From Candidatus Methylomirabilia bacterium (lineage in GTDB: Bacteria; Methylomirabilota; Methylomirabilia; Rokubacteriales; CSP1-6), in assembly GCA_046758385.1 (NCBI GenBank), contig JBHIAB010000001.1:2608-66607 (forward strand): 64,000 nucleotides of DNA, given 5' to 3'. This document shows, piece by piece, positions 16,626 through 64,000 of the stretch; position 1 is the stretch's first letter; every line of letters begins with the position of its first letter. A program made the position numbers and the translations under genes. The notes under the pieces are model-generated. The model did not search any database. It worked only from the letters and a program-made list of their open reading frames with translations, and was not told where the DNA came from.

Positions 16626-16644
16626 CGGGGCGCCAGAGTTGACC

Positions 16645-17429: not shown

Positions 17430-17469
17430 GTTCCCTCCCCTGCGCTATCACGATCACTCTTACTAGGCT

Positions 17470-18366: not shown

Positions 18367-18475
18367 GCGTTAGCGCTTCCGATCTGGAAACTCTCCTGAA
18401 TTCTGCACGTCGGCATCCAGAAACCCAATCTACGTACTCCCGTGAATCTTTGCGGACAGCCGAGACATGGAAATG

Positions 18476-44435: not shown

Positions 44436-44458
44436 GGGTCTTCGCCCCTTCGCACATT

Positions 44459-45780: not shown

Positions 45781-45785
45781 TCCCT

Positions 45786-48364: not shown

Positions 48365-48432
48365 CGCGCATCTACGATCTTTCGCTGGCAGGCCCTATCT
48401 CCCCTGACCTTATCCTCTCCCCCGGTCTATCG

Positions 48433-49059
48433 CTATTTGAGCCGGCTGCAGATGTCATCTCCGCCTGGAGCCGGCCCCGAATCCGCCGGGGAGTCGGGAT
48501 CGGTGTCGATGGTCCCATCCGGCCCCGCCGAGCAGGTCCACACCACCTTCGCCGGAGAGTCTGCGGGATTCGCATTGCCGATGTTTACCAGATAGCGGTT
48601 CCCCCAGGGGTCCTCAGTGATTTTCTCCAGGTACGGCCCCCGCCAACGAAACCGACCGTTCGAGGAGTATGGGGTGGTCCCGGGGGCGTTCTTGATCAGA
48701 TGATCCTCAAGATCGTCGGCCTTTCCCGGTGTGAACCATTTGTTGTTACCGGGGGGGTTGTCGATAGGATCGTTGCCCGGCCCTTGGAGGATGTCGAAGT
48801 CAGGGGTTCCTGTGGTCCGCGTGCCATCCGTATAGATCGGGAAATGGCCCACGTCTCGGGTGAGGCGGATGATGCTCGCCCCGATGACCTTGACATCTCC
48901 CTCGGCCTTTTCTCTCTTGGCATCTTCCACGTAGCTGATCACCATAGGAGTGATCGCCCCCAGGAGCAGGCCGATCACCGCCAGGACGACGATCATCTCC
49001 AAGAGGCTGATTCCCAACTCCCCTCCGAACTTCCGTCTCCTCATGCTTATCAGCTCCAT
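48433..49059 (-). CDS. gspG: pseudopilin, closest to canonical GspG
   Basis: G|ISLLEMIVVLAVIGLLLGAITP; WRGPYLEKITEDPWGNRYLV; SAGPDGTIDTDPD. Confidence 0.7.
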   Translation of the reverse strand: MELISMRRRKFGGELGISLLEMIVVLAVIGLLLGAITPMVISYVEDAKREKAEGDVKVIGASIIRLTRDVGHFPIYTDGTRTTGTPDFDILQGPGNDPIDNPPGNNKWFTPGKADDLEDHLIKNAPGTTPYSSNGRFRWRGPYLEKITEDPWGNRYLVNIGNANPADSPAKVVWTCSAGPDGTIDTDPDSPADSGPAPGGDDICSRLK

Positions 49060-49094
49060 TCCTTCAAGGATTGGAAAGTCTCGCGGGCTCCCGA

Positions 49095-49832
49095 TCAGGC
49101 TCCGGGCAAGATCGCGCTCGCCCTTCCCAGGTTCTTCCCTATATCATCAGATCCGGCGGCGACACTTTCCCGGTTCAGAGGCGTCTCGAGCAAACGGTCT
49201 GGGCCAACGGAGAGGATCCAGCCGTTGCCCAACACCCGCATGATCTCTGATAATCCCGCCTGACCCCGAATCGCGACCTCGCCGCCAAAGATCAGGGGTA
49301 GAACATTGATGATGTAGGCCCGGTCCCATGGGTCACTGATGACGGGTTCCATGTAGGGGCCCTGCCAGTCGGGAAAGTCGACCACACTCGGCCTTCTGAC
49401 CAGGTAGTCGTTGATGTCCAGGGCAGTGCTCGGAGAAAAATTCACGCAGCTCCGGCCGATAAAAACGGTGGCATCGAAGAAGCCGATGTTCAAGAAGTCC
49501 GGGAGGGGCGTGCCGAGCGTCGGATCTATAGATGTCGGCACCCCAGATTGGAGGAAGCACGGTCCGGCCCCCCCGACCACCCCGATCTTTTCCTCCCCGG
49601 GCCACTGGCGCGTGTCCTGGCGGAACTTCATCATGGCGTTGGCAAGGGTCAACAGCTCTCTGGCAGCCTTGGTCTCCTTCGCCTCCTCGATCCGATCCAT
49701 CGTCATGGGAATGGCTACGGACGCGACGATCGTGGTCATCGCGACGACCGCCGTAGTCTCGTAGAGGGTCACCCCGCGGCAATCCCTGAAGCGGGCGAGA
49801 AGGAATCTGAGCGTTCTGACGATGCGTCTCAT
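49095..49832 (-). CDS. pseudopilin, GspG-like (paralog 5)
   Basis: ...DCRG|VTLYETTAVVAMTTIVASVAIP; WQGPYMEPVISDPWDRAYIINV; SVGPDRLL. Confidence 0.7.
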   Translation of the reverse strand: MRRIVRTLRFLLARFRDCRGVTLYETTAVVAMTTIVASVAIPMTMDRIEEAKETKAARELLTLANAMMKFRQDTRQWPGEEKIGVVGGAGPCFLQSGVPTSIDPTLGTPLPDFLNIGFFDATVFIGRSCVNFSPSTALDINDYLVRRPSVVDFPDWQGPYMEPVISDPWDRAYIINVLPLIFGGEVAIRGQAGLSEIMRVLGNGWILSVGPDRLLETPLNRESVAAGSDDIGKNLGRASAILPGA

Positions 49833-50029
49833 GGCGTTGTCTTCTCGACATCTCTAACTGAGAGCGCACTCAAATGCGTCACGATTATAGCTGCACCCAA
49901 AGAATGGGGCCGGGGGGAGAGGAAGCGATGCCGCTCCCCCCGGTAAAGTCCCCCAAACGCCTTCTTCCAAGAAGTACTGGCGCGGCGCTGCTAAGACCCG
50001 CCTCGTGTCTTATGCGCTACTACTTGTCC

Positions 50030-50701
50030 CTAGTTTTGGACGATCTTCTTGCCGAGGCTCCGGCCGATGTCGTTACCATTCGGATCCAAGTCCGAATCTA
50101 CAAAGTCGGTGGTCAGGGTCTGGTCGGATCCACCCGAGATGACCCACCCGTAGCCCAAGTAATTGTGGGCACCCAAGTCCTCGGCGTCAAACAACGGGCG
50201 GGGGTTAAAGATATAGGCACGGCCCCAGGGATCCGCGGTGATCGGATCCATGTAGGGTCCATTCCAGTTGGAATAGCCTGAGGGCCCAGTGCTCGCCGAC
50301 AAGTAGGTGTTGAGGTCCACGGGCGGAGCGCAGGTATTATTGCCAAGGCAGGTGTTGGGAGTCAGGGTGAGGTCTGTCAGAGCGGGCAGTGGGGCGCTGC
50401 CGCTAACGAGGAAGATTGTTTGGTCTGGGATCCCATCGTTGCCGCTGGTATCCATCTCGAGTTCCCCAGGCCACTTTCCCGTGTCGTTGAAGAAGCTAAA
50501 GGCAGCCTTGAAGATGGTTTCCGTCTCCTGCTTCGCGGCAGTGCCCTCGGCGCTCTGAATCTGCTGGAGGGCCACAGGCACCGCGACGGCGGCGATAATC
50601 CCCGCCATGGCGACCGCCGCCGTGATCTCGTAGAGGCTGATGCCTCGTGAATCCCTGAGGTGCCTCAGCAACGCCTTGAACATTCTGGCCATCCGTCCCA
50701 T
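50030..50701 (-). CDS. pseudopilin, GspG-like (paralog 6)
   Basis: ...DSRG|ISLYEITAAVAMAGIIAAVAVP; WNGPYMDPITADPWGRAYIF. RBS GGAGGG 7 nt upstream of ATG 50701. Confidence 0.7.
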   Translation of the reverse strand: MGRMARMFKALLRHLRDSRGISLYEITAAVAMAGIIAAVAVPVALQQIQSAEGTAAKQETETIFKAAFSFFNDTGKWPGELEMDTSGNDGIPDQTIFLVSGSAPLPALTDLTLTPNTCLGNNTCAPPVDLNTYLSASTGPSGYSNWNGPYMDPITADPWGRAYIFNPRPLFDAEDLGAHNYLGYGWVISGGSDQTLTTDFVDSDLDPNGNDIGRSLGKKIVQN

Positions 50702-50753
50702 CTTCTCACCCTCCTTGTCTCGAGAGCTTCTCTCGAGATGTTATGGGTTTGCG

Positions 50754-51524
50754 TTAACTGACGCCAGACTGAACCTTCTCAATCCGCTTGCCAAGATTTT
50801 GCCCGACATCGTCTGTCGCAGGTGCGAGCACGGAGTCGGTCAGCCTTGTCTGGAGCAGCCGATCCGGCCCCACACTGAGGACCCAGGCATATCCCAGATC
50901 CCCCCCGGTCTCGATGGCCCCGGTAACGGCGTCCGGCGTGCCCGCGGCCCCGACACCGGCTGTGATCGCCTCGGCGAACATCAAGGGGAGGACATTGATG
51001 ACGTACGCCTGATTCCAGGGGTCAGCCGTAATGGGCTCCATGTAGGGACCCTGCCAGCTGGGGTAATCCACCGGGTTAGGCTTTCTGACCAGGTAGTCGT
51101 TGATGTTCAGGGCATTGGTGTGGCTGAAGGTCGCGCAGAGAGATGCCTGAGGCAGAAAGTCGCCGGTATCGATCGTTCCGATCTCAGCGCGCGTCAGCGT
51201 GGGAAGAAGCGCGCTCGTCTGTGGATCACTTCCTGGCCTCCCCGTCTGGAGGAAGCACGATGTGCCATCGGTCCTGATCTCCACCTCGCCGGGCATCCGG
51301 CCTGTGTCCTCGAAGAAGCTCGCGATAGCTTTGGTGATGATGGTCACTTCCTGGGCGGCCTTGGCACTCTTGGCTGCCTCTATCTTGTCCAGCGCCACCG
51401 GCAGAGCCACCGCCGCGAGGATGGCGGTCATGGCGACGACCGCCGTGGTCTCGTAAAGCGTGACCCCGCGGACATCCTTGAGGTGTCGGATAAGACCCCT
51501 GAGCAATCTCGTTACGGGCTTCAT
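50754..51524 (-). CDS. pseudopilin, GspG-like (paralog 7, promoter-proximal)
   Basis: Start chosen at MKPVTRLL (51524), preceded by GGAGG and the sigma-54 promoter. ...DVRG|VTLYETTAVVAMTAILAAVALP; WQGPYMEPITADPWNQAYVINV; SVGPDRLL. Confidence 0.7.
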   Translation of the reverse strand: MKPVTRLLRGLIRHLKDVRGVTLYETTAVVAMTAILAAVALPVALDKIEAAKSAKAAQEVTIITKAIASFFEDTGRMPGEVEIRTDGTSCFLQTGRPGSDPQTSALLPTLTRAEIGTIDTGDFLPQASLCATFSHTNALNINDYLVRKPNPVDYPSWQGPYMEPITADPWNQAYVINVLPLMFAEAITAGVGAAGTPDAVTGAIETGGDLGYAWVLSVGPDRLLQTRLTDSVLAPATDDVGQNLGKRIEKVQSGVS

Positions 51525-51555
51525 GTCCTTTGTCCTCCGCCGGTTGAGGCAGATA

Positions 51556-51571
51556 GCAATCATCGGGCCAG
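51556..51571 (-). promoter_or_regulatory. sigma-54 (RpoN) -24/-12 promoter
   Basis: Minus-strand reading CTGGCCCGATGATTGCT against consensus TGGCACG-N4-TTGCW. GG..GC spacing exactly 12. About 20-nt leader with GGAGG before ATG 51524. Confidence 0.5.
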
Positions 51572-51663
51572 CGTTAAGTGCTTGATTTCTTGGGGAAAAC
51601 GCCTCGAACAATAAGAGGAGAAAGCTACAAAATTTGGGAGTTCCCTACAAATCTTGAGGATCA

Positions 51664-52705: not shown

Positions 52706-54106
52706 TCAGCCGCCCTTGAAGCGCTCGGGGTCGATCCCATACTTTTTGACCCGGTACCACAGGCTCCGCTCGTTGATCCCGAGCCGCTTGGCGGCAACGG
52801 CCTGGACCCCTCGCGCTTCCCGGAGGGCTTCGATAATCCGTTCCCGCTCTAATGCGGCAAGGCGCTCGTCCAGGGAGCCTGCCGCCGCGGAACTCTCGGT
52901 CGCCGGCGCGGAGGGGTGGAGGTGCAGGGGGAGGTCTTCCTTCTGGATAAGCTCTCCCTCGGCCATGATCGCCGCGCGCTCGATGCAGTTTCGAAGCTCG
53001 CGGACGTTTCCCGGCCAGAAGTAGGCCATGAGCCGCTCCATCGCCTCACCGGACAGTCCCCTCACGTTCCTGTCCTCGGTGTCGGCGATCTCCTGGAGGA
53101 AACGCTCCACGAGGAGCGGGATGTCCCCCACCCGCTCTCGGAGCGGCGGAAGGACGATGGCGAAGACATTGAGGCGGTAGTAGAGGTCCTCCCTGAACTC
53201 CTTCCGTCGGACCGAGTCCGCCAGATCCTTGTTGGTGGCCGCGATGACGCGGACATCCACCCGAATCGGCTTGGTGCCCCCGACGCGGTAGATCTCCTGG
53301 TTCTCGATGGCCCGGAGGATCTTGGCCTGGGTCGTGAGGGCCATGTCTCCCACCTCGTCCAGGAAGAGGGTGCCCCCGTGGGCGAGCTCAAATTTGCCCG
53401 GCCTTTGCGCCGTGGCCCCGGTGAAGGCTCCCCGCTCGTGGCCGAAGAGCTCCGACTCGAGGAGACCGTCCGGGATGGCGGCGCAGTTGACCTTCACCAG
53501 CGGAGCCTCTCGTCTCGGGCCGTTTCGATGGACCAACTCGGCCACCAGCTCCTTCCCCGTCCCCGACTCCCCCTGGATGAGGACTGTCGCCTGGCTCCGG
53601 ACCACCTTCTCCAGGAGCACGAAGACCTCTTGCATCCGGCCGCTCTGCCCGATGATGCCGGGGAAGTCATACCGCCGCTGGAGGCGCTCACGGAGCTCTC
53701 GGACCTCGCGCTGCAGTAGCCGCTTCTCCAGCGCTCGAGCGATCACCACTTCCAACTCGTTCACCCTGAACGGTTTGGTGAAGAAATCGTAGGCCCCCCG
53801 AGCCAGGGCTTCCATGGCCTGCTGTTTAGTGGCTACCCCCGACATCACGATAACGATCAGATCCGGCGCGAAGGCCTTGGCCCGGCTTACGAACTCGATC
53901 CCGGAGAGTCCGGGAAGCTTCACGTCGGTCACGGCGATGTCGATAGTTTGAGAGCGCAGGCACTCGAGGGCCTTTTCGGCGGTCGAGGAAACCTCCACCG
54001 CATAGCCTTGCTTTGTCAGGGCTTCTTGAAGGGCGAAACGGACAGACTCCTCATCCTCCACCACGAGGATGGCGATGGACTCCGGCGCCACGCTACGCTC
54101 GGTCAT
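52706..54106 (-). CDS. sigma-54-dependent response regulator (NtrC/PilR family: REC + AAA+ + HTH)
   Basis: 466 aa. REC (LVVEDEESVRFAL...DIAVTDVKLPG). AAA+ with GESGTGKE Walker A and GAFTGA sigma-54 contact motif. C-terminal Fis-type HTH. Confidence 0.85.
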   Translation of the reverse strand: MTERSVAPESIAILVVEDEESVRFALQEALTKQGYAVEVSSTAEKALECLRSQTIDIAVTDVKLPGLSGIEFVSRAKAFAPDLIVIVMSGVATKQQAMEALARGAYDFFTKPFRVNELEVVIARALEKRLLQREVRELRERLQRRYDFPGIIGQSGRMQEVFVLLEKVVRSQATVLIQGESGTGKELVAELVHRNGPRREAPLVKVNCAAIPDGLLESELFGHERGAFTGATAQRPGKFELAHGGTLFLDEVGDMALTTQAKILRAIENQEIYRVGGTKPIRVDVRVIAATNKDLADSVRRKEFREDLYYRLNVFAIVLPPLRERVGDIPLLVERFLQEIADTEDRNVRGLSGEAMERLMAYFWPGNVRELRNCIERAAIMAEGELIQKEDLPLHLHPSAPATESSAAAGSLDERLAALERERIIEALREARGVQAVAAKRLGINERSLWYRVKKYGIDPERFKGG

Positions 54107-54190: not shown

Positions 54191-55708
54191 TCAAGAGGCC
54201 GTCGTGCCCTTAACGGGCAGGAGTATGGCGAACTCTGTGCCATGATCATGCGAGCTCCTTGCCTTGATCTCCCCCCCGTGATCGGCGACGGCACGATAGG
54301 CGATGGGGAGGCCAAGGCCGGACCCCTCCTTCTTCGTCGTGTAGAAGAGGGTGAAGATCCGGTCCAGATCCTCGGCCGGGATGTAGGAGCCGCTGTTGAT
54401 GACACGCACGGCGATGACCTGCCCGGGTTCTATGTCGGCCGGGGCTTCCTCCTGGCTTACGGCCACCGCAATCCGGCCACCCGCCGGGGTGGCCTCGAAG
54501 GCATTGATAATGATGTTCACGAACGCCTGGCTCAGACGATCCGGATTGCCCGAGATGGGAGGAAGGGAGGAGGGGATGAGCTTCTCCAGCTCCACCCCCT
54601 TCTCCCAAAAGCGCATCTCGCTCCATACCGTCGACACAGCGTCCGCCACGAGACTCTCGACCTGGCAGAGGACCGGTTCCCGGACCTGCACCTGGGCCAG
54701 CGTCCTGATCTCGTCGGTGAGGCGCCGGACCCGCTCCAGCTCCGCTTCGATTCGTTCCACGTAACGACGGTCGGGGCTATCCGGAGCAATAGTGTCGCCA
54801 ATAAGGTCGGTGAGGGTCTGAACCGCAAGGACGCTGCCGCCGATCTCATGGACGATGCTGGCCCCCAGCGCCCCCAACGCGGCCAGTTGATCCACGCGAC
54901 GGATCTCTCTCTCAATGGCCTGAACCTGAGCGAGATCCTGAATGGCGAGGATCGCCGCCCGGCTCTCTCCTATGTGCGAGTCTACCGGGCCAATGGTTCC
55001 CCTCACCATCACGCGTCTGCCATCCCGCAAGGCCAGAATGAGATGAGGGAGCGTCGTCGGCGTCTCGGCCGTGAAAGCCTCGCGCAACGCCCGAAGGAGC
55101 TGGGCCTGTCCCTCGCTCGGTTCCAGGACTTCCCACATTGTCTTCCCCACCAACTGCTCTGGCGCCAGACCGAGTATCCGACGGGCTTCGGCGTTGGCAT
55201 CCAGGATCTCCCCGGCGGGGCTGAGGGTGATGATTCCCTCCGGGAGGCGGTCGAGGATGTCTGTAGCCCTGGCGTACTTCTCAAAGGAGAGGAGGAGGTA
55301 GTTCAGGCGGTTGGTAAGCCCGGAGATTTCATCGGTTTCGCGCGCCGGCGGGCGCTCGGCCGAAGAAGGCATCGTCTGCTCCAGCCGGCCAAGCATCTGG
55401 CGGATGGGGTGAACGATGGCGACCGCGATGGCAATCCCGAGGAGAAGAGCCAGCCCTCCCCCGACACCGATCACCCATAAGGTGGTTTCCCGAAGCGCCT
55501 GGGCCTCAGCAATGGGGAGAAGCGCAAAAACGCCGGCGCCCAGCGACTGAGTCGTGAGGCGGATGGCCCACAACCCCACGGCCATGGCAAGTCCCATGAG
55601 GACCAGGGGGAGGAACACGATCAGACGGATGCCGGTCAGCCGTCTGGCCCGTCCAATGACGCGGCGAAGGGTAAGCCCCTGCCGCCTGTCAGCTACCTGC
55701 GATTTCAT
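54191..55708 (-). CDS. sensor histidine kinase with PAS domain (PilS/NtrB-like partner of the sigma-54 regulator)
   Basis: 505 aa. Two TM helices, PAS-like segment, H-box LAALGALGASIVHEIGGSV. ATP-binding N/G1/G2 boxes (INAFEAT, GSGLGL). Confidence 0.8.
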   Translation of the reverse strand: MKSQVADRRQGLTLRRVIGRARRLTGIRLIVFLPLVLMGLAMAVGLWAIRLTTQSLGAGVFALLPIAEAQALRETTLWVIGVGGGLALLLGIAIAVAIVHPIRQMLGRLEQTMPSSAERPPARETDEISGLTNRLNYLLLSFEKYARATDILDRLPEGIITLSPAGEILDANAEARRILGLAPEQLVGKTMWEVLEPSEGQAQLLRALREAFTAETPTTLPHLILALRDGRRVMVRGTIGPVDSHIGESRAAILAIQDLAQVQAIEREIRRVDQLAALGALGASIVHEIGGSVLAVQTLTDLIGDTIAPDSPDRRYVERIEAELERVRRLTDEIRTLAQVQVREPVLCQVESLVADAVSTVWSEMRFWEKGVELEKLIPSSLPPISGNPDRLSQAFVNIIINAFEATPAGGRIAVAVSQEEAPADIEPGQVIAVRVINSGSYIPAEDLDRIFTLFYTTKKEGSGLGLPIAYRAVADHGGEIKARSSHDHGTEFAILLPVKGTTAS

Positions 55709-55775: not shown

Positions 55776-55825
55776 AGTGGGGGCCGGATTCCTTCGGATC
55801 AGGGTTAAAAGACTGCTCAGAATAT

Positions 55826-55993
55826 GAGAGAGGTCACGACGCCAAACCACGTGACAGTCACGGAGGTCACCACGATGGCGACCAGCCATTTGAAACTCTT
55901 GTCGATCCGGCCCTCCACCTCCCGCTGCGATTCCGCTATCGCCTTTCGCAGCTCGCCGATCTCGGAAATGACGCGCTCAAAGCCCTGCTCCAT
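55826..55993 (-). CDS. small membrane protein (55 aa), unannotated in ORF track
   Basis: GGAGG 7 nt upstream of ATG 55993. MEQGFERVISEIGELRKAIAESQREVEGRIDKSFKWLVAIVVTSVTVTWFGVVTSLIF: amphipathic helix + C-terminal TM. Confidence 0.35.
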
Positions 55994-56071
55994 GTCTTAT
56001 CCTCCTGTTCCATGTTCGCTTCGCTCTATCCAACCATCTGGCTTCAGCGGGAAGCCGCGCTTCGGCTCCTT

Positions 56072-56638
56072 TCAACGCTCGGCCTCGAAGATGGGAATGG
56101 CCTCTCCCTCGAGCTCGATTCGACGGCGCCGGCCAGCCCGTTCCAGCACCACCCCGTCGGGACGGATCTCCACGACCCGCTCCTCCCCGAGCCGCTCTCC
56201 CTCGCTCAAGAGACGGCCATCGATGGAGGCCACTTTCTCTGAGCCCGAGATGATGACAGCCTTCACGGTGTAGGAAGGAAGCGGGGCGGGCGGAGGCGGG
56301 GGAGGCAACGGCTTGGCGACGGGACTCTTGGCACTCTTGGGGGCACGGAGGGCCCGCTCCTCCTCAGCCGTCAGGAACGGATCTCGTCCCCAAGTCCCCT
56401 CGAACCGCTTGAGCCACAATGCGTAGTCATCCCTGGCAAGGATGGCGACCGCAGTGCGAGAGGGAGTGGAGCTAGGTCCGGGCTCGTCAAGCCTTGCCGG
56501 TGCTTGAGCAACTGGCCGCCGGGCCGGAGACCGCCCCCTGAACCTTTTTGTGAGGGGCGAGGTGAAGAAGGCCCACACCATCGTTGCCAGCAGCAGGACC
56601 GTAATGACGATGCGCCGGATCTCCACTACTTCCCCCAC
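56072..56638 (-). CDS. PilP/GspC-like secretin-interacting protein
   Basis: 188 aa. N-terminal TM, Pro-rich linker (PPPPPPAP). C-terminal beta-domain YTVKAVIISGSEKVASIDGRLLSEGERLGEERVVEIRPDGVVL. Confidence 0.45.
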   Translation of the reverse strand: MGEVVEIRRIVITVLLLATMVWAFFTSPLTKRFRGRSPARRPVAQAPARLDEPGPSSTPSRTAVAILARDDYALWLKRFEGTWGRDPFLTAEEERALRAPKSAKSPVAKPLPPPPPPAPLPSYTVKAVIISGSEKVASIDGRLLSEGERLGEERVVEIRPDGVVLERAGRRRRIELEGEAIPIFEAER

Positions 56639-57270
56639 CGGAAGGTCCTGAGTTGCATCTCCGTACCGAGCTGGCCGTCTTCGTGCTGCACCTGCACGGA
56701 TTCCACTGCCACATACATGGAAAGGCTGCGGAGGCCTTCGAGAAACCGTACGAGATGGCGATAGCGATGAACCGCCCTCAGCCGGATGATCAAGGGGCTG
56801 GCCGTGAGTCCACGGGGCACTCTGAAGGATGAAGATCGTGGACGTTCAGAGCGTGAGGGACCCCGGGACCGACGCCCGCGAGATGCTTCCCCATCGCTTG
56901 GGGGGCTTTGAAGGTTGAGGCTGACGAGTTGCATGCCGGCCGAGCGAGCCAGATCTGCCACGGCCTCCAGAGCGCTGGGGAGAGCCTGCTCGGGAGGGAA
57001 GCGATCTCGCAGGCGGGCCTCCAACTGCTTCCAGAGCTTCCGCTCCTCCTCACCGACGGGTGGCACCGAACGTTGCTGCTCACGCACCACTCGGCGCTCT
57101 GTCTCCCCACGGGCTAATTGGGCCTTGAGCATCCTGATCTCTCGATACTTTGGGGCCACGAGTCCCAGGTATCCCCCGACCGCAAGGAGGCCGAGAAGCC
57201 CCATCACCATCGCGGCCTGTGCCTTGAAGGGCAAGCGCTGGAAATTGGGAAGCTGGGGTAGCTGAGGCAC
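56626..57270 (-). CDS. PilO/GspM-like inner-membrane assembly protein
   Basis: 214 aa. Single N-terminal TM, coiled coil, periplasmic domain. Position between PilMN-like and PilP-like genes. Confidence 0.45.
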   Translation of the reverse strand: MPQLPQLPNFQRLPFKAQAAMVMGLLGLLAVGGYLGLVAPKYREIRMLKAQLARGETERRVVREQQRSVPPVGEEERKLWKQLEARLRDRFPPEQALPSALEAVADLARSAGMQLVSLNLQSPPSDGEASRGRRSRGPSRSERPRSSSFRVPRGLTASPLIIRLRAVHRYRHLVRFLEGLRSLSMYVAVESVQVQHEDGQLGTEMQLRTFRWGK

Positions 57271-58830
57271 TTACCGCAGCTCTTTCAAGTGAAGTGTCAG
57301 TTCGAAGGCGAGGCGGTCCTCCTCGGCCGTGACCATCTCTTGGGTCGATTGGGGTGGCTGGGCCTTGCGCCGGAGGTCTCTCGCCCGCCTCCCCTCTTTG
57401 CTCCGGCGCTGGCTCGTCTGGACCTCGGGCCTCAGTGCCCCGTACCTCACCTCGAAAAAGAACGGCGAATCCCCGAGGCCGAAGTAGAAGCGGTTGAACT
57501 CTGATTGAGCCCTGGCGATATCGGCGAACTCCACGGCCCCTGTGAGCCTCATACGAGTGCCAGCTTTATCCCTGGACAGGGCCAGCTCTTCCAGGCGCAG
57601 ATGATCCGGGGCCAGGCGGCTTATCTCCTTCAGGACATCGGCCAGCGGCGGCCCCCCCAAGGGGTCTTGGGTGAGCAGGTGGATTCGCTGGCGCTGGATC
57701 TCCCGCTCCCGCAGGATCCGTTCAACCCCCCTGACCCTGGCCAGATGTGTCTGTTTCGCCGCGGTCCTGACTGCCAGGGCCCGGCGATAACTCGCCACCT
57801 CCCAAGCAGCACCCCAGAAGGAATAGCCCAAAGAAAGGACAAGCAGCGCCGCAACGACCCCGCCTACCGTCTTCAACAGCCGTGACTGCCGCGCTTCGAC
57901 AATGGATCGAGGCAGGAGGTTAGCGGTCTCGCGAGAGGACAGCATCGCCACCCCCAGAGGGAGGAGAAAGGCCCCTGCGGGAACACCCGCCAGCTCCTCG
58001 GTCTCCGGCGGAAGGACTCCCCGAATCGCCTCGTTGAGGTTGAACACCGACACTCCGGGGAGACGGGCTTCGACCTCGGGAAGGACCCGCTCGAAATTGG
58101 CGTCTACGCTCCCCACCACCACGGCGCCGACGGGCTCTCCCTTCGAGGCGACCGTGTATTGGCGGACTGTTCGCTGAAATTCGGTCACGAACCACTCGCT
58201 GAGCTGGAGACCGGGAACCGCGAGCTGAGGGATCTCTCGCGTCAGCCGGATCGTCCCCCTTTCGACCACGGTGACGGTAAGCGCGCGGAACCCCCAGTGA
58301 ACGACCGCCGTGGGGCGGTCCAACGAGAATGGCGAGAGAGAGCGCGCCACCTCCAGTGAAGCCAACGGTGCCGTGGTCACCAAGTGAGGGATGAGACGGG
58401 CGTCCAGCAGGGCGGACAGGGGTTGGTCCACCTCCTTCCGCGGGACCGCAACCACCAGCACCTCATCCTTCCGGACCGCGTCCTCGGTCTGCCCGAGTGT
58501 CTGGTGCCCCACGAGCAGATTCCCCCCGAGCTCCCGAGCCAGCCCTCGTTCCAGGTAGAGCTGTCGCTCCCTCCCGGTCATGGAGGGAAGGACCTCGATG
58601 CGGTGGGTCGAGTCAGGAGGAGACAAAACCAGATGGGCCTGCCGCCCCGTGATCCCTCCCTCGACCATCAGGGACTTGAGGAGGGCTCCGTCCAAGGTCC
58701 CCGCGGGGACCGCTCTGGCCGTGGCCTTGAGGATGGTGGGTGGATCAGTGCTGCGATCCACCTCCACGGCGATCAACCGCGTGGCGGCGATCTCCAGCCC
58801 GATGGTTCGGTGTGAGGTCAGCACCGCCAT
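57271..58830 (-). CDS. PilM-PilN-like fusion (GspL-like) assembly protein
   Basis: 519 aa. N-terminal actin-like PilM segment (IGLEIAATRLIAVEV). Internal TM (VGGVVAALLVLSLGYSFWGAAW). PilN-like C-terminus. Confidence 0.55.
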   Translation of the reverse strand: MAVLTSHRTIGLEIAATRLIAVEVDRSTDPPTILKATARAVPAGTLDGALLKSLMVEGGITGRQAHLVLSPPDSTHRIEVLPSMTGRERQLYLERGLARELGGNLLVGHQTLGQTEDAVRKDEVLVVAVPRKEVDQPLSALLDARLIPHLVTTAPLASLEVARSLSPFSLDRPTAVVHWGFRALTVTVVERGTIRLTREIPQLAVPGLQLSEWFVTEFQRTVRQYTVASKGEPVGAVVVGSVDANFERVLPEVEARLPGVSVFNLNEAIRGVLPPETEELAGVPAGAFLLPLGVAMLSSRETANLLPRSIVEARQSRLLKTVGGVVAALLVLSLGYSFWGAAWEVASYRRALAVRTAAKQTHLARVRGVERILREREIQRQRIHLLTQDPLGGPPLADVLKEISRLAPDHLRLEELALSRDKAGTRMRLTGAVEFADIARAQSEFNRFYFGLGDSPFFFEVRYGALRPEVQTSQRRSKEGRRARDLRRKAQPPQSTQEMVTAEEDRLAFELTLHLKELR

Positions 58831-58840
58831 TACCTCAGTC

Positions 58841-60058
58841 TCATCGGCCCGTGTATCTCATTTTCCCCAGGATTGAATAGATGGGGAGGTAGACGGACAG
58901 GATGGAGCCCAAGACGACGACGGCCATGACGGCAATGACGGCGGGCTCGATGAGGGCAAAGAGCCGTCGAACGGTGTCGGGTACTTCACGGTCGTAGTAC
59001 TGAGAGATCTTGGCCAGACTGTCGCCCAGGTTGCCGGACATCTCCCCGGTGGAGACCATTCTGACCACGAGGGGCGGAAACTCTCCGGAGAGCCGGAGGG
59101 CGTCGGTAAAGGACATCCCTGCCACCACTCGCTCACGTACCCGGGCCACCCCTCGGGCGATCACTGCGTTCCCCACGACCCGCTCCAGGACCATCAGGGT
59201 TAGCGCGAACTCCACTCCCGCTCGGTGAAGGGTTTCCAGGAAGTGCGCAAAGCGGCTCATGGCAATCTTCTGAAGGAGACCCCCGACGACTGGCACCTGC
59301 AGTTTGACGCGATCGACGAGAAGCCGGCCAGCCGGCACCCTCACCGCCAGTCGGACGGCCACGACAAGTCCGAAGATCCCGAGGAAGACAAGCATCCAGT
59401 TGGCTGCCATGAAATCGCCAATCGCCAGGACGATCTTGGTGGGAAGAGGCATGGGGGCCCCGGTCTTGGCGAGGAGCCCCTTGAATTTTGGCAGGACGAA
59501 CGTAAAGAGGACCGTCGCCAGGATCCCCAGGGCCGTCATGAGAAGGGCGGGGTAGATGCTGGCCTGGCGGAGCTGGCTCGCCAACCCCTCCTGCCACTCC
59601 AGGGAGGCCACCAGCTCCATGAGCACCGCGTCGAGCTTTCCAGAGGCCTCGCCAGCACGGACGGTGGCCACATAGACCTCTGAGAATACCTTGGGCAGGC
59701 TCGCCATGGCCTCCGAGAGCATGACCCCTCTCTCCAGCTTCTGAACGAGGATCTCCGTGACGGTCCTGACGCGCGGGCTAGCCTCTCTGGCGTACTCCTT
59801 GAGAGCAGGGAGCAGCGGGACCCCGGCGGACAAGATGGTGCCCAGATGTACGGTGAAGAGAATGAGCTCCCTGCGGGAGATTCGACCCACGGACTCTCGA
59901 GGCTGCCGCGTCGCTCTCGGGGCCCGCTCCTGGACGGAGATGACGTAGAGCCCCCTGTCCGAAAGCATGGAATCCACCTGATCTTCGGTGGGGGCGTCCA
60001 TCACCCCGGTCACGGTCTTCCCCATCTCATCCTTGGCTCTGTAAGCAAACTGCGGCAT
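58841..60058 (-). CDS. gspF: type II secretion/type IV pilus platform protein GspF/PilC
   Basis: Start at MPQFAYRAKDEMGK (60058). Duplicated T2SSF domains, three TM segments. Confidence 0.85.
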   Translation of the reverse strand: MPQFAYRAKDEMGKTVTGVMDAPTEDQVDSMLSDRGLYVISVQERAPRATRQPRESVGRISRRELILFTVHLGTILSAGVPLLPALKEYAREASPRVRTVTEILVQKLERGVMLSEAMASLPKVFSEVYVATVRAGEASGKLDAVLMELVASLEWQEGLASQLRQASIYPALLMTALGILATVLFTFVLPKFKGLLAKTGAPMPLPTKIVLAIGDFMAANWMLVFLGIFGLVVAVRLAVRVPAGRLLVDRVKLQVPVVGGLLQKIAMSRFAHFLETLHRAGVEFALTLMVLERVVGNAVIARGVARVRERVVAGMSFTDALRLSGEFPPLVVRMVSTGEMSGNLGDSLAKISQYYDREVPDTVRRLFALIEPAVIAVMAVVVLGSILSVYLPIYSILGKMRYTGR

Positions 60059-60069
60059 CTTCCGGATTC

Positions 60070-61737
60070 CTACTCGATGGAATGCGTGACCCGGATGATC
60101 TCGTCCAGGGTCGTGATCCCGGCCGCCACCTTTTTCATGCCGTCCTCGAGCATGGTCTCCATCCCTTGCTCCCGGGCGACTTTCAGGAGAAGTCCCGGCT
60201 CGGCTTTTTGGGTAATGAGCTGACCGACCTGCGGGCTCGCCAGGAGAATCTCGAAGATCGCAATCCGGCCCCGGTATCCGGTGAAGTTGCATGCCCCACA
60301 CCCCTTGCCCTCGTAGAAGGTCGCAATCGCCTGGGCCGTCGGTCCCGCTCGGGCCAACAGCTCATCGTCGGGAGTGACCTCGGCCTTGCAGTTCCGGCAG
60401 ATGACCCGGACTAGACGCTGGGCAAGAACGGCGAGGAGGGAGGATGCCACGAGGAAGGGCTCGACTCCCATCTCCAGCATGCGGGGAATCGTTCCGACGG
60501 CATCGTTGGTGTGAAACGTGCTGAAGACGAGGTGTCCGGTCAGGGCAGCCCGCACCGTGGTCTCGACCGTTTCCAGATCTCGCATCTCCCCCACGAGGAT
60601 GATGTCCGGGTCGTGGCGAAGAACCGAGCGAAGTCCCGACGCGAAGGTCAGCCCCGCCCGCGGGTTGATCTGAGATTGCCGGATCAGCGGGATCTCGTAC
60701 TCCACTGGATCCTCGAGGGTGATGATGTTGACCTCCAGCGAGTTGATGTGCGAGAGGGCCGAGTAGAGGGTGGTGGTTTTCCCCGAGCCGGTCGGCCCAG
60801 TCACAAGGATCAAGCCATAGGGCTTTTGAATAAGCCGCTTGAAGATGGCCAGGTGCTCCTGTGAAAACCCGAGCTGCTCGAGGCCAAAGCTTCGGCTCTT
60901 ATCGAGGACACGGATGACCAGGTTTTCCCCGTGGATGGTGGGAAACGTCGAGACTCTCAGGTCCAACCGATGGGGACCCTCGTAGTACTGAATGCGGCCA
61001 TCCTGAGGGACGCGGCTCTCGGAGATGTTCAGATTGGCAAGGATTTTCACGCGGGTGACGATCCCCGAGTGAAGAGAGCTGGGAATGGTCGGACCCGAAT
61101 AGAGGATCCCGTCGAGTCGGAATCGCGTGCGAACCGTCCTCTCGTCGGGTTCGATATGGATATCGGTGGCACCGTCCTGGGCGGCCTTCCTGAATAGGTC
61201 GTCAACGACTTGAACAATGGGAGTCTCGACGCTCACGCTGCCCGCTGCTCCCGCCGCGCGACCCTCCGCCTGCTGGATTTCCTCTTCCGTGGCCCCCTTG
61301 CGTCCCGCCTGCCCGGAATAGAATTTGTTGATCACCTGACGAATCTGGCTTTCCTTGGCAGACACCACCTTGATGAAGCGCTGGGTAGTCCGCTGAAGCT
61401 CGTCGATCGCGGCCACATCAAAAATATTGGCCATGGCCACCGTCAGGGAGAACTCCTCCTGGGAGATCGGGACCAACGTGTGTTTCTTTGCGAAGGTGTC
61501 TGGGACGAGCGCAAACAGGTCGGGGTCAAAGTCATGTTTGTCGAGGTCGATATGGGGAATGCCGGCCTGCTCGGCCAGGGCCTGGGAGAGGTCGTCGGCC
61601 GTGGCAAAGCCCATGCGGATCAGCACCTCTCCGAACAGCTCACCCGAGGTCCGCGCCTCACGCAGGGTCGCGTCACGCTGCTCTTTCGTTATCACCCCGG
61701 TCTCGACCAGGTACTCCCCAAGCGGCTTCCGAGCCAT
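60070..61737 (-). CDS. gspE: type II secretion/MSHA-type assembly ATPase GspE/MshE with N-terminal MshEN (c-di-GMP-binding) domain
   Basis: 555 aa. Walker A GPTGSGKTTTLY, Asp box, Walker B, tetracysteine CRNCKAEV...GKGCGAC. N-term has two MshEN-type motifs (PLGEYLVETGVITKEQRDATLREA and LFGEVLIRMGFATADDLSQALAEQ). Confidence 0.9.
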   Translation of the reverse strand: MARKPLGEYLVETGVITKEQRDATLREARTSGELFGEVLIRMGFATADDLSQALAEQAGIPHIDLDKHDFDPDLFALVPDTFAKKHTLVPISQEEFSLTVAMANIFDVAAIDELQRTTQRFIKVVSAKESQIRQVINKFYSGQAGRKGATEEEIQQAEGRAAGAAGSVSVETPIVQVVDDLFRKAAQDGATDIHIEPDERTVRTRFRLDGILYSGPTIPSSLHSGIVTRVKILANLNISESRVPQDGRIQYYEGPHRLDLRVSTFPTIHGENLVIRVLDKSRSFGLEQLGFSQEHLAIFKRLIQKPYGLILVTGPTGSGKTTTLYSALSHINSLEVNIITLEDPVEYEIPLIRQSQINPRAGLTFASGLRSVLRHDPDIILVGEMRDLETVETTVRAALTGHLVFSTFHTNDAVGTIPRMLEMGVEPFLVASSLLAVLAQRLVRVICRNCKAEVTPDDELLARAGPTAQAIATFYEGKGCGACNFTGYRGRIAIFEILLASPQVGQLITQKAEPGLLLKVAREQGMETMLEDGMKKVAAGITTLDEIIRVTHSIE

Positions 61738-61840
61738 CTGGACCGTTCCTCTCTGTCACGTCGGTTAGGAGGGGTTCTGCGTTCAAACACACCATTATAC
61801 CAGGAATTTTAGCAACTTGAGCGATCCAGAACCCGGCGCC

Positions 61841-63007
61841 TCAGCGGCCGCGGGCGAGAAACCGAAGGCGCTCTCTCACTTTCGCGACCAGGGGGGCATG
61901 GCGCTCAGAGGCCAACTCGACGAACTTCTGGTAGTGCCGCTCTGCTTTCTCCCTGTGCCCGCGACGTTCCCAGAGGAGCGCGACGTTGTAATGGGCCTCG
62001 GCCAGCGTGGGATCGTACCGGAGCGCCTCCCCGAACGCCTCCAGCGCATCGTTGTGGCGTTCGGCCAGCAAGAAGATGATCCCGAGGTTGGTGTGGCTCT
62101 CCACGTTGGCGGGGTTGATCCGAAGGGCCTGCTTGAAGAGGTCGATGGCCTCCCGATACTGTCCCTTGCGGTAACGAATCACGCCCAGGTTGTTCAGGGC
62201 CTTCTCGTACTTCGGGTCCAGGGCGAGAGCTTGCTCAAAGGCCTCGATGGCCTGATCCAGCCGCCCGCTCTCTTTCAACGCCACCCCCAGGTTATTGAAT
62301 GCCGCAGGGTTGCGAGGATCCGCCGCAATCGACTTCTGGTACTCCTCGACCGCCCGGTCGAGCTGGCCCGTCCGCTGAGAGCGGAGTGCGGCCGCAAAGA
62401 ACTTGGTAGCCCCCTTCTCCTCATCGGGTCGAATCTCCACGATGGTCGGCGAGGACGGCTTCCTGGCCGGGCGCGGACGAGCCATGGGAGGAGGCGGCGG
62501 AGGTGCCTCGACTTTCGCCGGGCTGGGAGCGGGAGGCGGGGCCTTCTCGGCCTCCTTGGCCTCCGGGAGCGCCGCCTTCACTCGGCTAAGGGCGACCTCC
62601 CGGCGAGGGTCGGTGCGGGGGGTCGACCTGGCAGGTGGTTGCTTGACCGGGGGCCGTGGTTTCTCCGCCAGTGCGGCCTCGAGAGCCGCCCGAACCTCGG
62701 GGATCGTGGTGCCCTCCTCCGACTTCGGGGCCGGGGCAGGGGCCTGTGCCAGCGGTGTCTTTGATTCGACGATCAGGAAAGGCTGCGCGGGAGCCCTCAC
62801 GCGCGCGGGCTTCGGTCGAATCAGATAAAGCCCGCCGATCAGGAGCAGGCCGACCAGACCCATGCTGCCTACCAGGAGGACGAGCCTCCGCGCGGATGCT
62901 CCGCCCCAGCCCGGGAGCGCCGACAATGGCCGCTTGACAGAGAATGGAGGCAGTCTCCGAACGGCTCCCTGCTGCGCCCTCTTCAGCGCCTCGGTGATCA
63001 GGCTCAC
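61841..63007 (-). CDS. TPR-repeat membrane protein (MshN/PilF-like)
   Basis: 388 aa. N-terminal TM, Pro/Ala-rich linker. At least 5 TPR units (AAFNNLGVALKESGRLDQAIEAFEQALALDP...). Confidence 0.65.
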   Translation of the reverse strand: MSLITEALKRAQQGAVRRLPPFSVKRPLSALPGWGGASARRLVLLVGSMGLVGLLLIGGLYLIRPKPARVRAPAQPFLIVESKTPLAQAPAPAPKSEEGTTIPEVRAALEAALAEKPRPPVKQPPARSTPRTDPRREVALSRVKAALPEAKEAEKAPPPAPSPAKVEAPPPPPPMARPRPARKPSSPTIVEIRPDEEKGATKFFAAALRSQRTGQLDRAVEEYQKSIAADPRNPAAFNNLGVALKESGRLDQAIEAFEQALALDPKYEKALNNLGVIRYRKGQYREAIDLFKQALRINPANVESHTNLGIIFLLAERHNDALEAFGEALRYDPTLAEAHYNVALLWERRGHREKAERHYQKFVELASERHAPLVAKVRERLRFLARGR

Positions 63008-64000
63008 GGCCGGTGGGCGTTTCCGGGGCTGTCGACGACCCGTACGACCCTGACCGCTTCAAACCCCATCTCTGCCGTGAGCCGATCCCGGGTCTCGTTG
63101 GCCTCAGCCAGCTCCAGGAAGCGCCCCACGAGAACCCCGTAGTTCGGCTCGCCACGCTCACCAGCCCTGACGGCGACGAACGGACGATAGCCACGCACGG
63201 AGAGCCGCTGCTCCACCTCCCGTGCCTGGTCCTCGGTGGGATATGCCCCGACCAGGAGCGTAAACGGTTGGTCACCCTTGCCCCGCTCTGCATCGGACGA
63301 GGGCTCGACGCCCGGCGAAGACGTGGAGGAGGCAGGGCCCCAATCCCACCCCTTGGATGCCAGCCACCCGGCCGCGAACGCAAGGACGACCATGCCCGCG
63401 ATCCAAAGGGGGAGGGCCCGCCGCGGCACCGGGCCGGCCGGCCCCACACTGACCTCGTGGCTCAGGCTCTTGATGGCCTTGTGCGCCCGTCCCCGGGTGA
63501 TGTGGGTGGAGTGGTCCACGAACCCTTGAAGGAGGGCCCGATCGCAGGCCAGGTTGATCAGGCGAGGGACGCCACGCGAGAAGCGGTAGATAGCCTCAAG
63601 GGCTCCCGACGAGAGCGTCACCTCCCCGCTCCCGCCGGCCACCATTAGCCGATGATAGATGTACTGGCAGGTCTCCTGGAATGGGAGCGGCCGAAGCTGG
63701 CAGCGGACGGACACCCGCTGGTTGAGCTGCTTGAGCTCGGGCGTGGCCAAGAGATCCAGGAGGCCCAGCTGGCCCACCAGGATGATCTGGATGAGCTTCT
63801 CCCGCTCGGTCTCCAGGTTGGAGAGGAGCCGGATCTGTTCCAGGAGCGTCGGCGAGAGGTCCTGGGATTCGTCGATGATGAGGACCGCGTTCTGGCCTTC
63901 CGTGAGTGACCGAATGAGGAAATCATTGAGCTCGTCGATCAGCTCCTTCTTCGTGCTGCCGCTGCCAGTGAGGCCGAAGTCATGAAGCACGGCGCGAAGC
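63004..64000 (-). CDS. ExeA/GspA/MshM-like AAA ATPase with C-terminal SPOR domain; 5' (N-terminal) part beyond window end
   Basis: LIIDESQDLSPTLLEQIRLLSNLETEREKLIQIILVGQLGL...RGVPRLINLACDRALL ExeA blocks (Walker B onward). Walker A not in window. TM, then SPOR-like LLVGAYPTEDQAREVEQRLSVRGYRPFVAV. Confidence 0.7.
   Translation of the reverse strand, partial: LRAVLHDFGLTGSGSTKKELIDELNDFLIRSLTEGQNAVLIIDESQDLSPTLLEQIRLLSNLETEREKLIQIILVGQLGLLDLLATPELKQLNQRVSVRCQLRPLPFQETCQYIYHRLMVAGGSGEVTLSSGALEAIYRFSRGVPRLINLACDRALLQGFVDHSTHITRGRAHKAIKSLSHEVSVGPAGPVPRRALPLWIAGMVVLAFAAGWLASKGWDWGPASSTSSPGVEPSSDAERGKGDQPFTLLVGAYPTEDQAREVEQRLSVRGYRPFVAVRAGERGEPNYGVLVGRFLELAEANETRDRLTAEMGFEAVRVVRVVDSPGNAHRP

Follow-up and report, generated by a model that had tools for sequence, protein, structure and literature searches.

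Which of the known type IV filament machines, if any, is encoded by the long run of genes at one end of the DNA studied here? The stretch, called the window below, comprises 64 kb from Candidatus Methylomirabilia bacterium, a member of the Methylomirabilota (Rokubacteria); all window coordinates refer to it, and the window end is position 64000. On the minus strand, from 64000 to 44917, lies a single long series of co-oriented genes that overlap or are separated by short gaps. An earlier note had read eight of them, in this order, as an ExeA/MshM-like AAA+ protein with a SPOR domain, an MshN-like TPR protein, a GspE/MshE ATPase, a GspF-like platform protein, a PilM-PilN fusion, a PilO-like protein, a PilP-like protein and a micro-ORF, and Pfam, NCBIfam, a structure model and homologues confirmed all eight, in that order and on that strand. 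It is near certain that these genes encode a type IV filament (TFF) assembly machine; apart from the prepilin peptidase, a single block holds all of its core parts, with the secretin just past the window. The region is probably the larger part of an apparently complete TFF locus of ~21 kb, belonging to the branch of type IVa pili (T4aP), mannose-sensitive haemagglutinin pili (MSHA, or MSH) and the type II secretion system (T2SS), and its product an adhesive, MSHA-like surface filament; between a surface adhesive pilus and a secretion pseudopilus, we infer the pilus.

The outer-membrane channel was evaluated on neighbouring DNA. The earlier note had described the block as lacking a secretin within the window. 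A Logan contig (L002), 100% identical to window 58845-64000 (5,156 nt), continues 1,763 nt past 64000 and carries a secretin open reading frame (ORF) whose 3' end lies 18 nt before the start of the ExeA-like gene, ~276 nt past the window end. The apparent lack is therefore an edge effect, of the kind that makes it advisable to check parts "missing" at a window edge on overlapping contigs. In three related Rokubacteria contigs (L005, L006 and L007, of which L006 stops inside the regulator gene), a secretin of ~520 aa adjoins the ExeA-like gene each time. The Pfam architecture of the locus secretin, STN, Secretin_N_2 and Secretin, is the same as that of MshL in the msh locus of Aeromonas caviae and in the msh-like locus of Legionella adelaidensis, where PGAP names MshL. 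The best NCBIfam model is MshL (TIGR02519), with 234.6 bits (230.1 for L005) against a cut-off of 250.2, and the identity to Aeromonas MshL is 29.7%.

This channel bears on two other explanations of the locus. According to the first, which we consider rather unlikely, it is a divergent T2SS, in which the GspG-like proteins build a short pseudopilus in the periplasm and so push folded exoproteins out through the secretin, with PilM-N taking the part of GspL, PilO that of GspM, the MshK-like protein that of GspC, and the ExeA/TPR pair that of GspA/GspB. The GspD proteins of two T2SS loci consist of N0, three Secretin_N domains and Secretin, unlike the secretin found here, which is of the MshL type, has no Secretin_N domain and scores 188-202 bits with the GspD model (TIGR02517, cut-off 351). 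According to the second, which we regard as quite unlikely, the locus belongs to an ordinary retractile type IVa pilus serving twitching or DNA uptake, with PilT, PilD and the true major pilin encoded elsewhere and the GspG-like genes providing minor pilins. Against this, the secretin is short, the Pfam scan reported no AMIN domain in it, and its score with the PilQ model (TIGR02515) is 188.8 bits, under the cut-off of 284.35.

The two genes that follow the secretin point in the same direction, with one qualification. An AAA_22 protein adjoins the secretin in L002, L005, L006, L007 and a second filament locus described below (L022). The window's ExeA-like protein, whose N-terminal 89 aa lie beyond the window end, measures 417 aa in full in L002; over residues 1-246, the AAA domain, it is 42.6% identical to Aeromonas MshM, and with TIGR03015 it scores 306.5 bits, not reaching the cut-off of 324.5. 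MshM (~300 aa) is without the transmembrane (TM) helix and SPOR domain found in the window protein, which thus has the topology of ExeA/GspA, AAA+ domain, TM helix and peptidoglycan-binding domain, and not that of the short MshM, as a T2SS would have it. The peptidoglycan-binding domain of ExeA is PF01471, in place of which the window protein has SPOR. When E. coli K-12 GspA and GspB were used as references for the ExeA/TPR pair, similarity was undetectable. The TPR protein starts with the conserved sequence (V/M)SLIxxALK, continues through a hydrophobic TM-like stretch and a linker rich in Pro and Ala, and ends in TPR repeats. It is 23% identical to MshN of Aeromonas (E 7e-7), and MshN of both Aeromonas and Legionella shares with it the motif MS(L/V)(I/L)xxxLK at the N-terminus and the hydrophobic stretch that follows. 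The earlier note had called the ExeA-like/TPR pair characteristic of MSHA-type pili, and that view now gains support, together with the secretin type and the gene order. Neither the pair nor the organisation in a single locus is a trait of T4aP (PMC6668835).

If the genes are given the letters of their Msh counterparts, the order in the window, secretin-ExeA-TPR-ATPase-platform-PilMN-PilO-PilP, reads L-M-N-E-G-I-J-K. In L005-L007 and L022 the order is ATPase-platform-PilMN-PilO-PilP-secretin-ExeA-TPR, or E-G-I-J-K-L-M-N, and in the Aeromonas locus (L008) it is I-J-K-L-M-N-E-G, as it is in the Legionella locus (L009) as far as mshE and in the published locus of V. cholerae (PMC4624765). The window's, the relatives' and the msh orders are rotations of one cycle. 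The T2SS explanation can point to a contig without an assigned organism (L020), in which ATPase, platform, four pilins, PilM-N, PilO, a PilP-like protein and an MshL-type secretin follow one another, with no AAA_22 or TPR gene adjacent, an order colinear with gspE-F-G..K-L-M-x-D of the Comamonas (L010) and Methylosinus (L017) T2SS loci, which together with that of E. coli K-12 (L024) served as our T2SS references.

Neither the window nor any of eight related or overlapping loci contained a Peptidase_A24-like ORF, and the best tblastn match to E. coli GspO in them had an E of 0.14. MSH systems are encoded in a single locus, and all MSH loci are without a prepilin peptidase (Denise et al., 2019, PMC6668835), so its absence here is expected; the earlier note was right that the window has none, and the point is not an oddity. 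The window also contains no PilT, no PilD and no T4a-type major pilin, which speaks against a T4aP, while the absence of PilT from the locus agrees with a T2SS. The features of the locus are collected below.

Features of the filament locus, in the direction of transcription (window coordinates)
Feature	Position	Strand	Support or remark
MshL-type secretin	~64277 to at least 65763 (extrapolated, outside the window)	-	ORF in L002, 495 aa visible
ExeA/GspA/MshM-like AAA+ ATPase with TM helix and periplasmic SPOR domain	63004-64000	-	AAA_22 E 3.7e-12; SPOR E 1.6e-7
MshN-like TPR protein	61841-63007	-	TPR_11 E 3.7e-35; start overlaps ExeA stop by 4 nt
PilB/GspE/MshE-family assembly ATPase, N-terminal MshEN domain	60070-61737	-	T2SSE E 2e-124; MshEN E 1e-21
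Inner-membrane platform, GspF/PilC/MshG family	58841-60058	-	T2SSF twice, E 7e-44
PilM-PilN fusion (MshI-like), 519 aa	57271-58830	-	AlphaFold model and Foldseek; Pfam of relatives; hhalign
PilO/GspM/MshJ-like protein	56626-57270	-	Pfam PilO 23.3 bits against cut-off 22 (marginal)
MshK/PilP/GspC-class protein, 188 aa	56072-56638	-	Weak T2SSB, CdsD_C and GspC_delta matches; hhalign
Micro-ORF, 58 aa, hydrophobic C-terminal tail-anchor-like stretch	55817-55993	-	Homologues in L005 and L006
Membrane PAS histidine kinase	54191-55708	-	PAS, HisKA, HATPase_c; best NCBIfam model AtoS-like, under cut-off
NtrC-family sigma-54-dependent response regulator, PilR-like role by context	52706-54106	-	Response_reg, Sigma54_activat, HTH_8
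Sigma-54 (-24/-12) promoter-like element TGGCCCGATGATTGCT	51555-51570	-	~30 nt upstream of first pilin ATG
Pilin 7, 256 aa, 20-aa basic leader, RG/VTLYE, GspG-like WxGPY...DPWxxAY core	50754-51524	-	T2SSG 28.3 bits
Pilin 6, 223 aa, paralogue of pilins 5 and 7, RG/ISLYE	50030-50701	-	T2SSG 23.8 bits
Pilin 5, 245 aa, paralogue of pilins 6 and 7, RG/VTLYE	49095-49832	-	T2SSG 32.2 bits; TIGR01710 47 bits
Pilin 4, 208 aa, most GspG-like, LG/ISLLE	48433-49059 (MAG gene call starts 49044)	-	T2SSG 31.3 bits; TIGR01710 65.7 bits
Pilin 3, 581 aa, RG/FTLLG, without Glu at +5, glycine-rich repeats	46619-48364	-	Sequence; weak bactofilin-like repeat match
Pilin 2, ~278 aa from ATGA-overlapped start, QG/FTLIE, GspG-like core and C-terminal extension	45786-46622	-	N_methyl 30.3 bits; T2SSG 17 bits, sub-threshold
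Pilin 1, ~287 aa from Met45 of listed ORF, HG/FTLIE, GspG-like core and C-terminal extension	44917-45780	-	N_methyl; T2SSG 23.6 bits
Slashes in the pilin motifs mark the cleavage site; MAG, metagenome-assembled genome.

The protein that would have to serve as GspL in a T2SS was examined through its fold and its relatives. The 519-aa protein itself has no Pfam hit. In an AlphaFold model made from 12 homologues (pLDDT 78), the best Foldseek matches to residues 1-300 were PilM from P. aeruginosa (E 8e-17) and PilM from Thermus, the cytoplasmic domain of GspL matching far more weakly (E 6.5e-8); we read the long helix of the model (308-387) as a putative TM segment and coiled coil, and the C-terminal alpha/beta domain as a predicted periplasmic, PilN-like domain. 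A profile search of 1.84 billion representatives recovered 1,821 relatives at E <=1e-3, mostly of ~500 aa, and among 80 that were sampled Pfam recognised PilM_2 in 57 and PilN in 19. The N-domain aligned with Aeromonas MshI (hhalign probability 72%, E 3.5e-5), and E. coli GspL gave no match (probability 0.2%). Because the model has a PilM fold and the relatives carry PilM_2 and PilN, the protein is a PilM-PilN fusion, PilM/MshI-like rather than GspL-like, so that the fusion proposed by the earlier note was confirmed and its likening to GspL was not. The PilM fold is a point in favour of a T4aP, and the weakness of the GspL matches is one against a T2SS. When genome contigs were searched with the PilM-N alignment as a profile, one locus, L007, was recovered.

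The PilO-like protein is kept at 46-52% identity in L005-L007 and scores 16 bits with the GspM model. The MshK-like protein begins with a hydrophobic TM-like stretch, followed by a Pro-rich linker and a small C-terminal domain of the secretin-contacting class; this domain aligns with Aeromonas MshK (121 aa; hhalign 93%, E 2.6e-7), and the protein with the one at the MshK position in Legionella (hhalign 75%), while the score of 32 bits with the GspC_delta model lies under the cut-off of 150. Homologues of the micro-ORF, one in L005 and two in L006, are 27-40% identical and lie directly upstream of the kinase gene.

The earlier note had proposed that the ATPase be placed by phylogeny; here it was compared with MshE, GspE and PilB/PilF. 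It is 38.3% identical to Aeromonas MshE over its full length, its best NCBIfam model is PilB (TIGR02538; 568.9 bits, under the cut-off of 675.65), and with the GspE model (TIGR02533) it scores 552 bits, under the cut-off of 630. In the larger of two trees (neighbour-joining, 379 core columns, 29 sequences, 300 bootstraps), 100% clades were obtained for MshE (Aeromonas and Legionella), for GspE (E. coli, P. aeruginosa and Ralstonia), for PilB of Myxococcus and Geobacter, and for PilF of Thermus and Deinococcus. The window ATPase fell outside all of these reference clades, in a separate clade supported at 95% with sequences from Rokubacteria, NC10, a deltaproteobacterial MAG, Brocadiales, Nitrospinae, Latescibacterota and one unassigned contig. 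Its position outside the fully supported GspE clade argues against a T2SS. The T4aP explanation draws on the PilB model and on the 95% clade, some of whose ATPases are labelled PilB by their sources, including one (L023) with a kinase carrying a PilS-type domain of six TM helices and a sigma-54 regulator within ~3.5 kb. A tree of 18 sequences had paired the window protein with Methylosinus GspE at 68%, which raised the idea of an "atypical T2SS ATPase"; the pairing vanished with denser sampling, and the idea was dropped.

Since MshE has been studied in connection with cyclic di-GMP (c-di-GMP) (PMC4624765, PMC5013675), we note that the ATPase passes the cut-off of the MshE-related NCBIfam model for the c-di-GMP motif (NF053729; 53.3 bits, cut-off 38), and that c-di-GMP binding is plausible from its sequence. 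The platform protein scores 300.8 bits with TIGR02120, not reaching the cut-off of 424, and is 30.2% identical to Aeromonas MshG and 29.1% to E. coli GspF, values that allow assignment at the family level only.

The pilins gave a different picture. Seven genes with class III (prepilin) signal sequences occupy 44917-51524, and five of the seven products score above the gathering threshold of Pfam T2SSG. For six, NCBIfam ranks GspG first (TIGR01710, 37-66 bits, always under the cut-off of 88.85), pilin 3 having no NCBIfam match, and three align with E. coli GspG over its whole length (pilin 4, residues 2-134; pilin 2, 5-136; pilin 1, 6-135). With the Aeromonas Msh pilins, alignment is confined to the N-terminal 30-50 residues, and none of the ten pilin-region proteins of the Aeromonas and Legionella loci has T2SSG, although nine have the N-methyl motif. 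The pilins are thus GspG-like and not MshA-like, as the earlier note had proposed. The family assignment favours a T2SS, as does the presence of one pilin without Glu at +5, like GspK; pilins of this kind are known as GspK and as PilX-type tip subunits. At the same time, matches to the minor pseudopilins GspH/I/J/K were limited to the N-terminal helix for GspH and GspJ, with no GspI or GspK model match, and neither equivalogs of these four nor a GspC with HR and PDZ domains were found. The pilins are also 1.5-4 times the size of GspG, and three of them are paralogues with long leaders, all of which speaks against a T2SS. These three, pilins 5, 6 and 7, form a family with 62 relatives, of which all the named ones come from Rokubacteria/Methylomirabilia and several are annotated GspG or PulG.

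Pilin 3 has near its C-terminus a stretch rich in Asp, His and Lys (...GHGKGHDDDDDDDHKKGKKPKKPKPN...), and its sequence makes it a candidate for a tip adhesin or for a subunit that binds metals or minerals. The last pilin gene is closely followed, at 43995-44480 on the minus strand, by one whose 161-aa product has a hydrophobic stretch at its N-terminus, contains tandem repeats of ~22 residues (RETQELI(V/T)REAEGNRQLLQQMS...) and faintly resembles a Leptospira "sigma 54-regulated protein" family.

A second copy of the locus allowed variation to be located. Contig JBHIAZ010000060.1 of MAG GCA_046758825.1 (L003) carries a copy 99.93% identical to the window, with 10 differences in 13,957 positions and no indels. 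All of the differences are in pilin genes (window 48137-50374): pilin 6 has six of them, which alter four amino acids, pilin 5 has a single silent one, and the other three lie in pilin 3, close to where the contig ends. The assembly genes are identical. The sample is small, and the clustering may mean that exposed subunits diversify between strains, or that paralogues were mis-assembled.

Control of the pilin genes was considered next to their identity. The element TGGCCCGATGATTGCT is the sole match to the sigma-54 consensus with one mismatch in the 64 kb, and the best in the window. In L005 the first pilin gene is likewise preceded by such an element, TGGCTCGATTGTTGCT, so that the site is conserved in two genomes whose proteins are only ~50% identical. 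Matches to the sigma-54 pattern overall numbered 68 against 77 expected, not above chance, and what weight the site has comes from its conservation alone. Upstream of the element, TTTGTAG/CTACAAA heptads are found in the window (51600-51660, minus strand; TTTGTAGggaactcccaaaTTTTGTAG) and in L005 (~10560-10590; CTACAAAATTTGCAG), and may constitute a binding site of the activator. Because the sigma-54 element is conserved and a sigma-54 activator is encoded beside it, the pilin array appears to be linked to the assembly locus, and in L005 and L019, a relative represented by a JGI 3300035310 contig, the ATPase and platform, the two-component system and the pilins stay together. The earlier note had considered that the array might be functionally unlinked; the linkage in these two relatives and the element conserved in L005 suggest otherwise. 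In T4aP, pilin genes are classically controlled through sigma-54 and a two-component system, and this may be counted in favour of that explanation; on the other hand, the promoter precedes the GspG-like array, suggesting that it encodes main subunits rather than the minor pilins that an ordinary T4aP would require.

We also considered that the locus might be an assembly artefact or a functionless, decaying remnant. The source is a MAG, and L019 at this site keeps only the ATPase, platform, regulators and pilins, both of which would fit such an origin. All locus ORFs are intact, however, with operon-like overlaps, two independent assemblies agree with the window at 99.93-100% identity, and every locus protein is conserved at 45-77% identity in other genomes, the same genes being present in L005, L006 and L007 at 45-76%. 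We therefore regard an artefact or remnant as very improbable. In L019 (10001-21356), the trp/accD neighbourhood is as in the window, and the genes are those for the ATPase, platform, three small ORFs, kinase, regulator and five pilins, with the small unnamed ORFs at the position of the micro-ORF; no PilM-N, PilO, PilP, secretin, ExeA or TPR gene is present at this site, and the whole locus is inverted relative to the trp genes compared with the window. Since the rest of the locus is kept without it, the block of alignment and secretin genes is movable or dispensable at this site.

A second filament locus (L022) was found on contig JBHIAZ010000018.1 of MAG GCA_046758825.1, at positions 3278-20189, in the order two pilins, ATPase, platform, a 407-aa protein, PilM-N, PilO, a PilP-like protein, a secretin with STN and Secretin_N_2, an AAA_22 protein with SPOR, and a TPR protein. 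It has the same parts list as the window locus, its pilins have faint T2SSG matches and its ATPase has MshEN; it differs in that the ATPase is 52% identical, there are two pilins and not seven, no two-component system is embedded and the order is not rotated. L022 is preceded by two Wzy_C and TPR proteins of ~685 aa, which could be pilin O-glycosylation enzymes. A contig of the NC10 Methylomirabilis type (L021) shows the start of the same arrangement, a Wzy_C/TPR protein, two pilins, ATPase and platform, and then ends. Because the combination recurs in several Rokubacteria genomes and in L022, the window locus is a lineage-typical, stable architecture and not a chimera. The word "hybrid" used by the earlier note is accordingly fair as a description of mixed features, and not in the sense of a cross between MSHA and T2SS, since the ATPase belongs to neither clade, the fusion is not GspL-like and the combination is typical of the lineage.

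Taken together, an adhesive surface filament is favoured because the outer-membrane module and the organisation are MSH-like and the fusion has the fold of PilM and not of GspL; because the sigma-54/two-component control is pilus-like; and because the pilins are large (208-581 aa), multiplied (three paralogues) and extended, with all 10 differences between the two copies falling in their genes. The T2SS keeps some standing because of the GspG-type subunits, the ExeA-like topology and the absence of PilT. If the locus does build an adhesive filament, the kinase/activator pair would turn on the pilin operon via sigma-54, and a peptidase encoded elsewhere would cut the leaders at G/(F/V/I)(T/S)L(I/L/Y)E, the first slash marking the cut. 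The ATPase, possibly gated by c-di-GMP, would power polymerisation on the platform, and the ExeA-SPOR/TPR pair would aid assembly of the secretin through the peptidoglycan layer. The product would be a surface filament for attachment, MSHA-like in role, in which the 581-aa pilin without Glu at +5 and the pilins with C-terminal extra domains could act as tip or adhesive subunits.

Several results weigh against an MSHA-like filament. The pilins resemble GspG, a hallmark of T2SS pseudopili, and have no MshA-like match, and the ATPase is not in the MshE clade, in trees that were made by neighbour-joining with few references and an unresolved backbone. The AlphaFold model of pilin 7 is poor (pLDDT 67, with the C-terminal third disordered); Foldseek against the PDB returned nothing under E = 1 for it, the longest alignment being with PulG (5wda, TM score 0.46), and when PDB sequences were searched with a profile, the only part matched was the generic helix at the pilin N-terminus. 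Because these fold searches were uninformative, the label "GspG-like" is based on Pfam, NCBIfam and BLAST only. A relaxed 24-residue tandem MshEN motif, taken from Wang et al. (2016, PMC5013675), is missed by the ATPase at three positions, including the Gln of motif 1, and c-di-GMP binding was rejected as a settled feature on the grounds that the NCBIfam model passes and the relaxed published motif fails. The retraction ATPase and peptidase are absent from the window, so the locus can be called no more than apparently complete.

An origin of the locus from a phage, plasmid or defence island was rejected, since the flanks are housekeeping genes (trp, accD, polA, glnE) syntenic with L019; the other ORFs of the window, across which G+C is ~0.6-0.69, comprise housekeeping genes, an insertion sequence (IS)-like element and toxin-antitoxin-like pairs. 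The pilin end of the locus is flanked by a stand-alone receiver-domain protein (42012-42587, minus strand) and a protein with a SPOR-domain counterpart in L019 (41307-42020, plus strand), the same flanks being present in L019; these two proteins may belong to the filament system. Three nucleotidyltransferase/HEPN pairs, which are toxin-antitoxin-like, were seen at 52086-52604/51664-52089, 43015-43551/42584-43018 and 17082-17444/16648-17100, the third recognised by eye alone. The first sits between the response regulator and the pilin operon, at a site that is empty in L005 and L019. At 4800-9300 there is an island of lower G+C (~0.58-0.60, against 0.64-0.69 in adjacent 2-kb blocks), which contains an IS-like DDE transposase ORF (6067-7167) and is probably a mobile insertion; the ORF at 7023-8225 looks by eye like an N4/N6 DNA methyltransferase (DPPS and FGG motifs).

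The TFF superfamily has been classified mainly from Proteobacteria; to this the locus adds a conserved and apparently complete case from a phylum of soil and groundwater that is uncultured. In the published survey, 884 "generic" TFF systems were left unclassified and MSH was found in few groups outside Gammaproteobacteria (Denise et al., 2019, PMC6668835). That a secretin module of the MSH type travels with GspG-type subunits and a PilB-grade motor bears on how MSH and T2SS branched from T4aP. We offer only tentatively, as an idea that we consider rather unlikely, that the locus, its Rokubacteria orthologues and the second Methylomirabilota locus form a distinct TFF family with this combination of parts, a surviving intermediate between T4aP/MSH and T2SS; if so, it could show the origin of the T2SS pseudopilus and of the GspA/B secretin-assembly module. 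The locus is in any case a variant within the known T4aP/MSH/T2SS radiation and not a new kind of machine. It also bears on how far labels such as "GspG" predict function. Public annotation of these genes is inconsistent, the ATPase being called GspE/PulE, PilB or "Flp pilus assembly complex ATPase component TadA", the pilins GspG, PulG or hypothetical, and the fusion protein PilM or hypothetical, and automatic labels ("GspG", "TadA", "PilB", "GspE") for such genes should be read with this inconsistency in mind.

How, then, does the locus compare with the systems already known? With the MSHA locus of Vibrio cholerae and Aeromonas (mshHIJKLMNEGF-BACDOPQ) it shares the organisation in a single locus that has no peptidase, the MshL architecture of the secretin, the genes for an MshM-like AAA_22 ATPase and an MshN-like TPR protein that come immediately behind it, an assembly ATPase with an MshEN domain, MshI-, MshJ- and MshK-like alignment proteins, and an order that is a rotation of mshIJKLMNEG. 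It differs in that its ATPase lies outside the gammaproteobacterial MshE clade, its pilins are of the GspG type and not of the MshA/B/C/D type, PilM and PilN are fused in one 519-aa protein where Aeromonas has two genes, and a two-component sigma-54 system is embedded; BLAST against the Aeromonas locus detected no homologues of MshH, F, O, P or Q. The host phylum differs as well, being Methylomirabilota, whereas in the survey of Denise et al. (2019, PMC6668835) MSH was confined to Gammaproteobacteria, Epsilonproteobacteria and Chrysiogenetes.

With the T2SS (GspC-O with GspA/GspB; Exe in Aeromonas) the locus shares GspG-like pilins with a DPWGxxY core, one large pilin without Glu at +5, a motor and platform of the GspE and GspF families, the ExeA-like topology and the lack of a retraction ATPase in the locus. 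In contrast, its secretin is not of the GspD type, no GspH/I/J/K, GspC (with HR and PDZ) or GspL is recognisable, the pilins are much larger and multiplied, and the ATPase is outside the canonical GspE clade. With T4aP (PilBCMNOPQ and PilSR; Myxococcus, Geobacter and Thermus) it has in common the PilM fold, PilN- and PilO-like partners, a PilB-like ATPase, and pilin genes under sigma-54 and two-component control. Twitching-motility genes have been reported in Rokubacteria, which the T4aP explanation can also claim, in a one-line mention (Becraft et al., 2017, PMC5712423) beyond which we found no published remarks on Rokubacteria pili. Unlike T4aP, the locus has no PilT, PilD or T4a major pilin, its secretin is short and without a detected AMIN domain, it includes the ExeA/TPR pair and is organised as a single locus, and its ATPase is in a different well-supported clade from PilB of Myxococcus and Geobacter and PilF of Thermus.

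Under strict membership the locus falls outside all three systems: outside MSH by its ATPase clade and pilins, outside T2SS by its secretin and the lack of GspL and minor pseudopilins, and outside T4aP by the lack of PilQ and PilA. It nonetheless has the PilM/PilN/PilO/PilP alignment complex of T4aP, with PilM and PilN fused, and from MSH it has an MshM-like ATPase next to the secretin, the accessory MshI/J/K/N proteins with their gene order, and a single locus without a peptidase.

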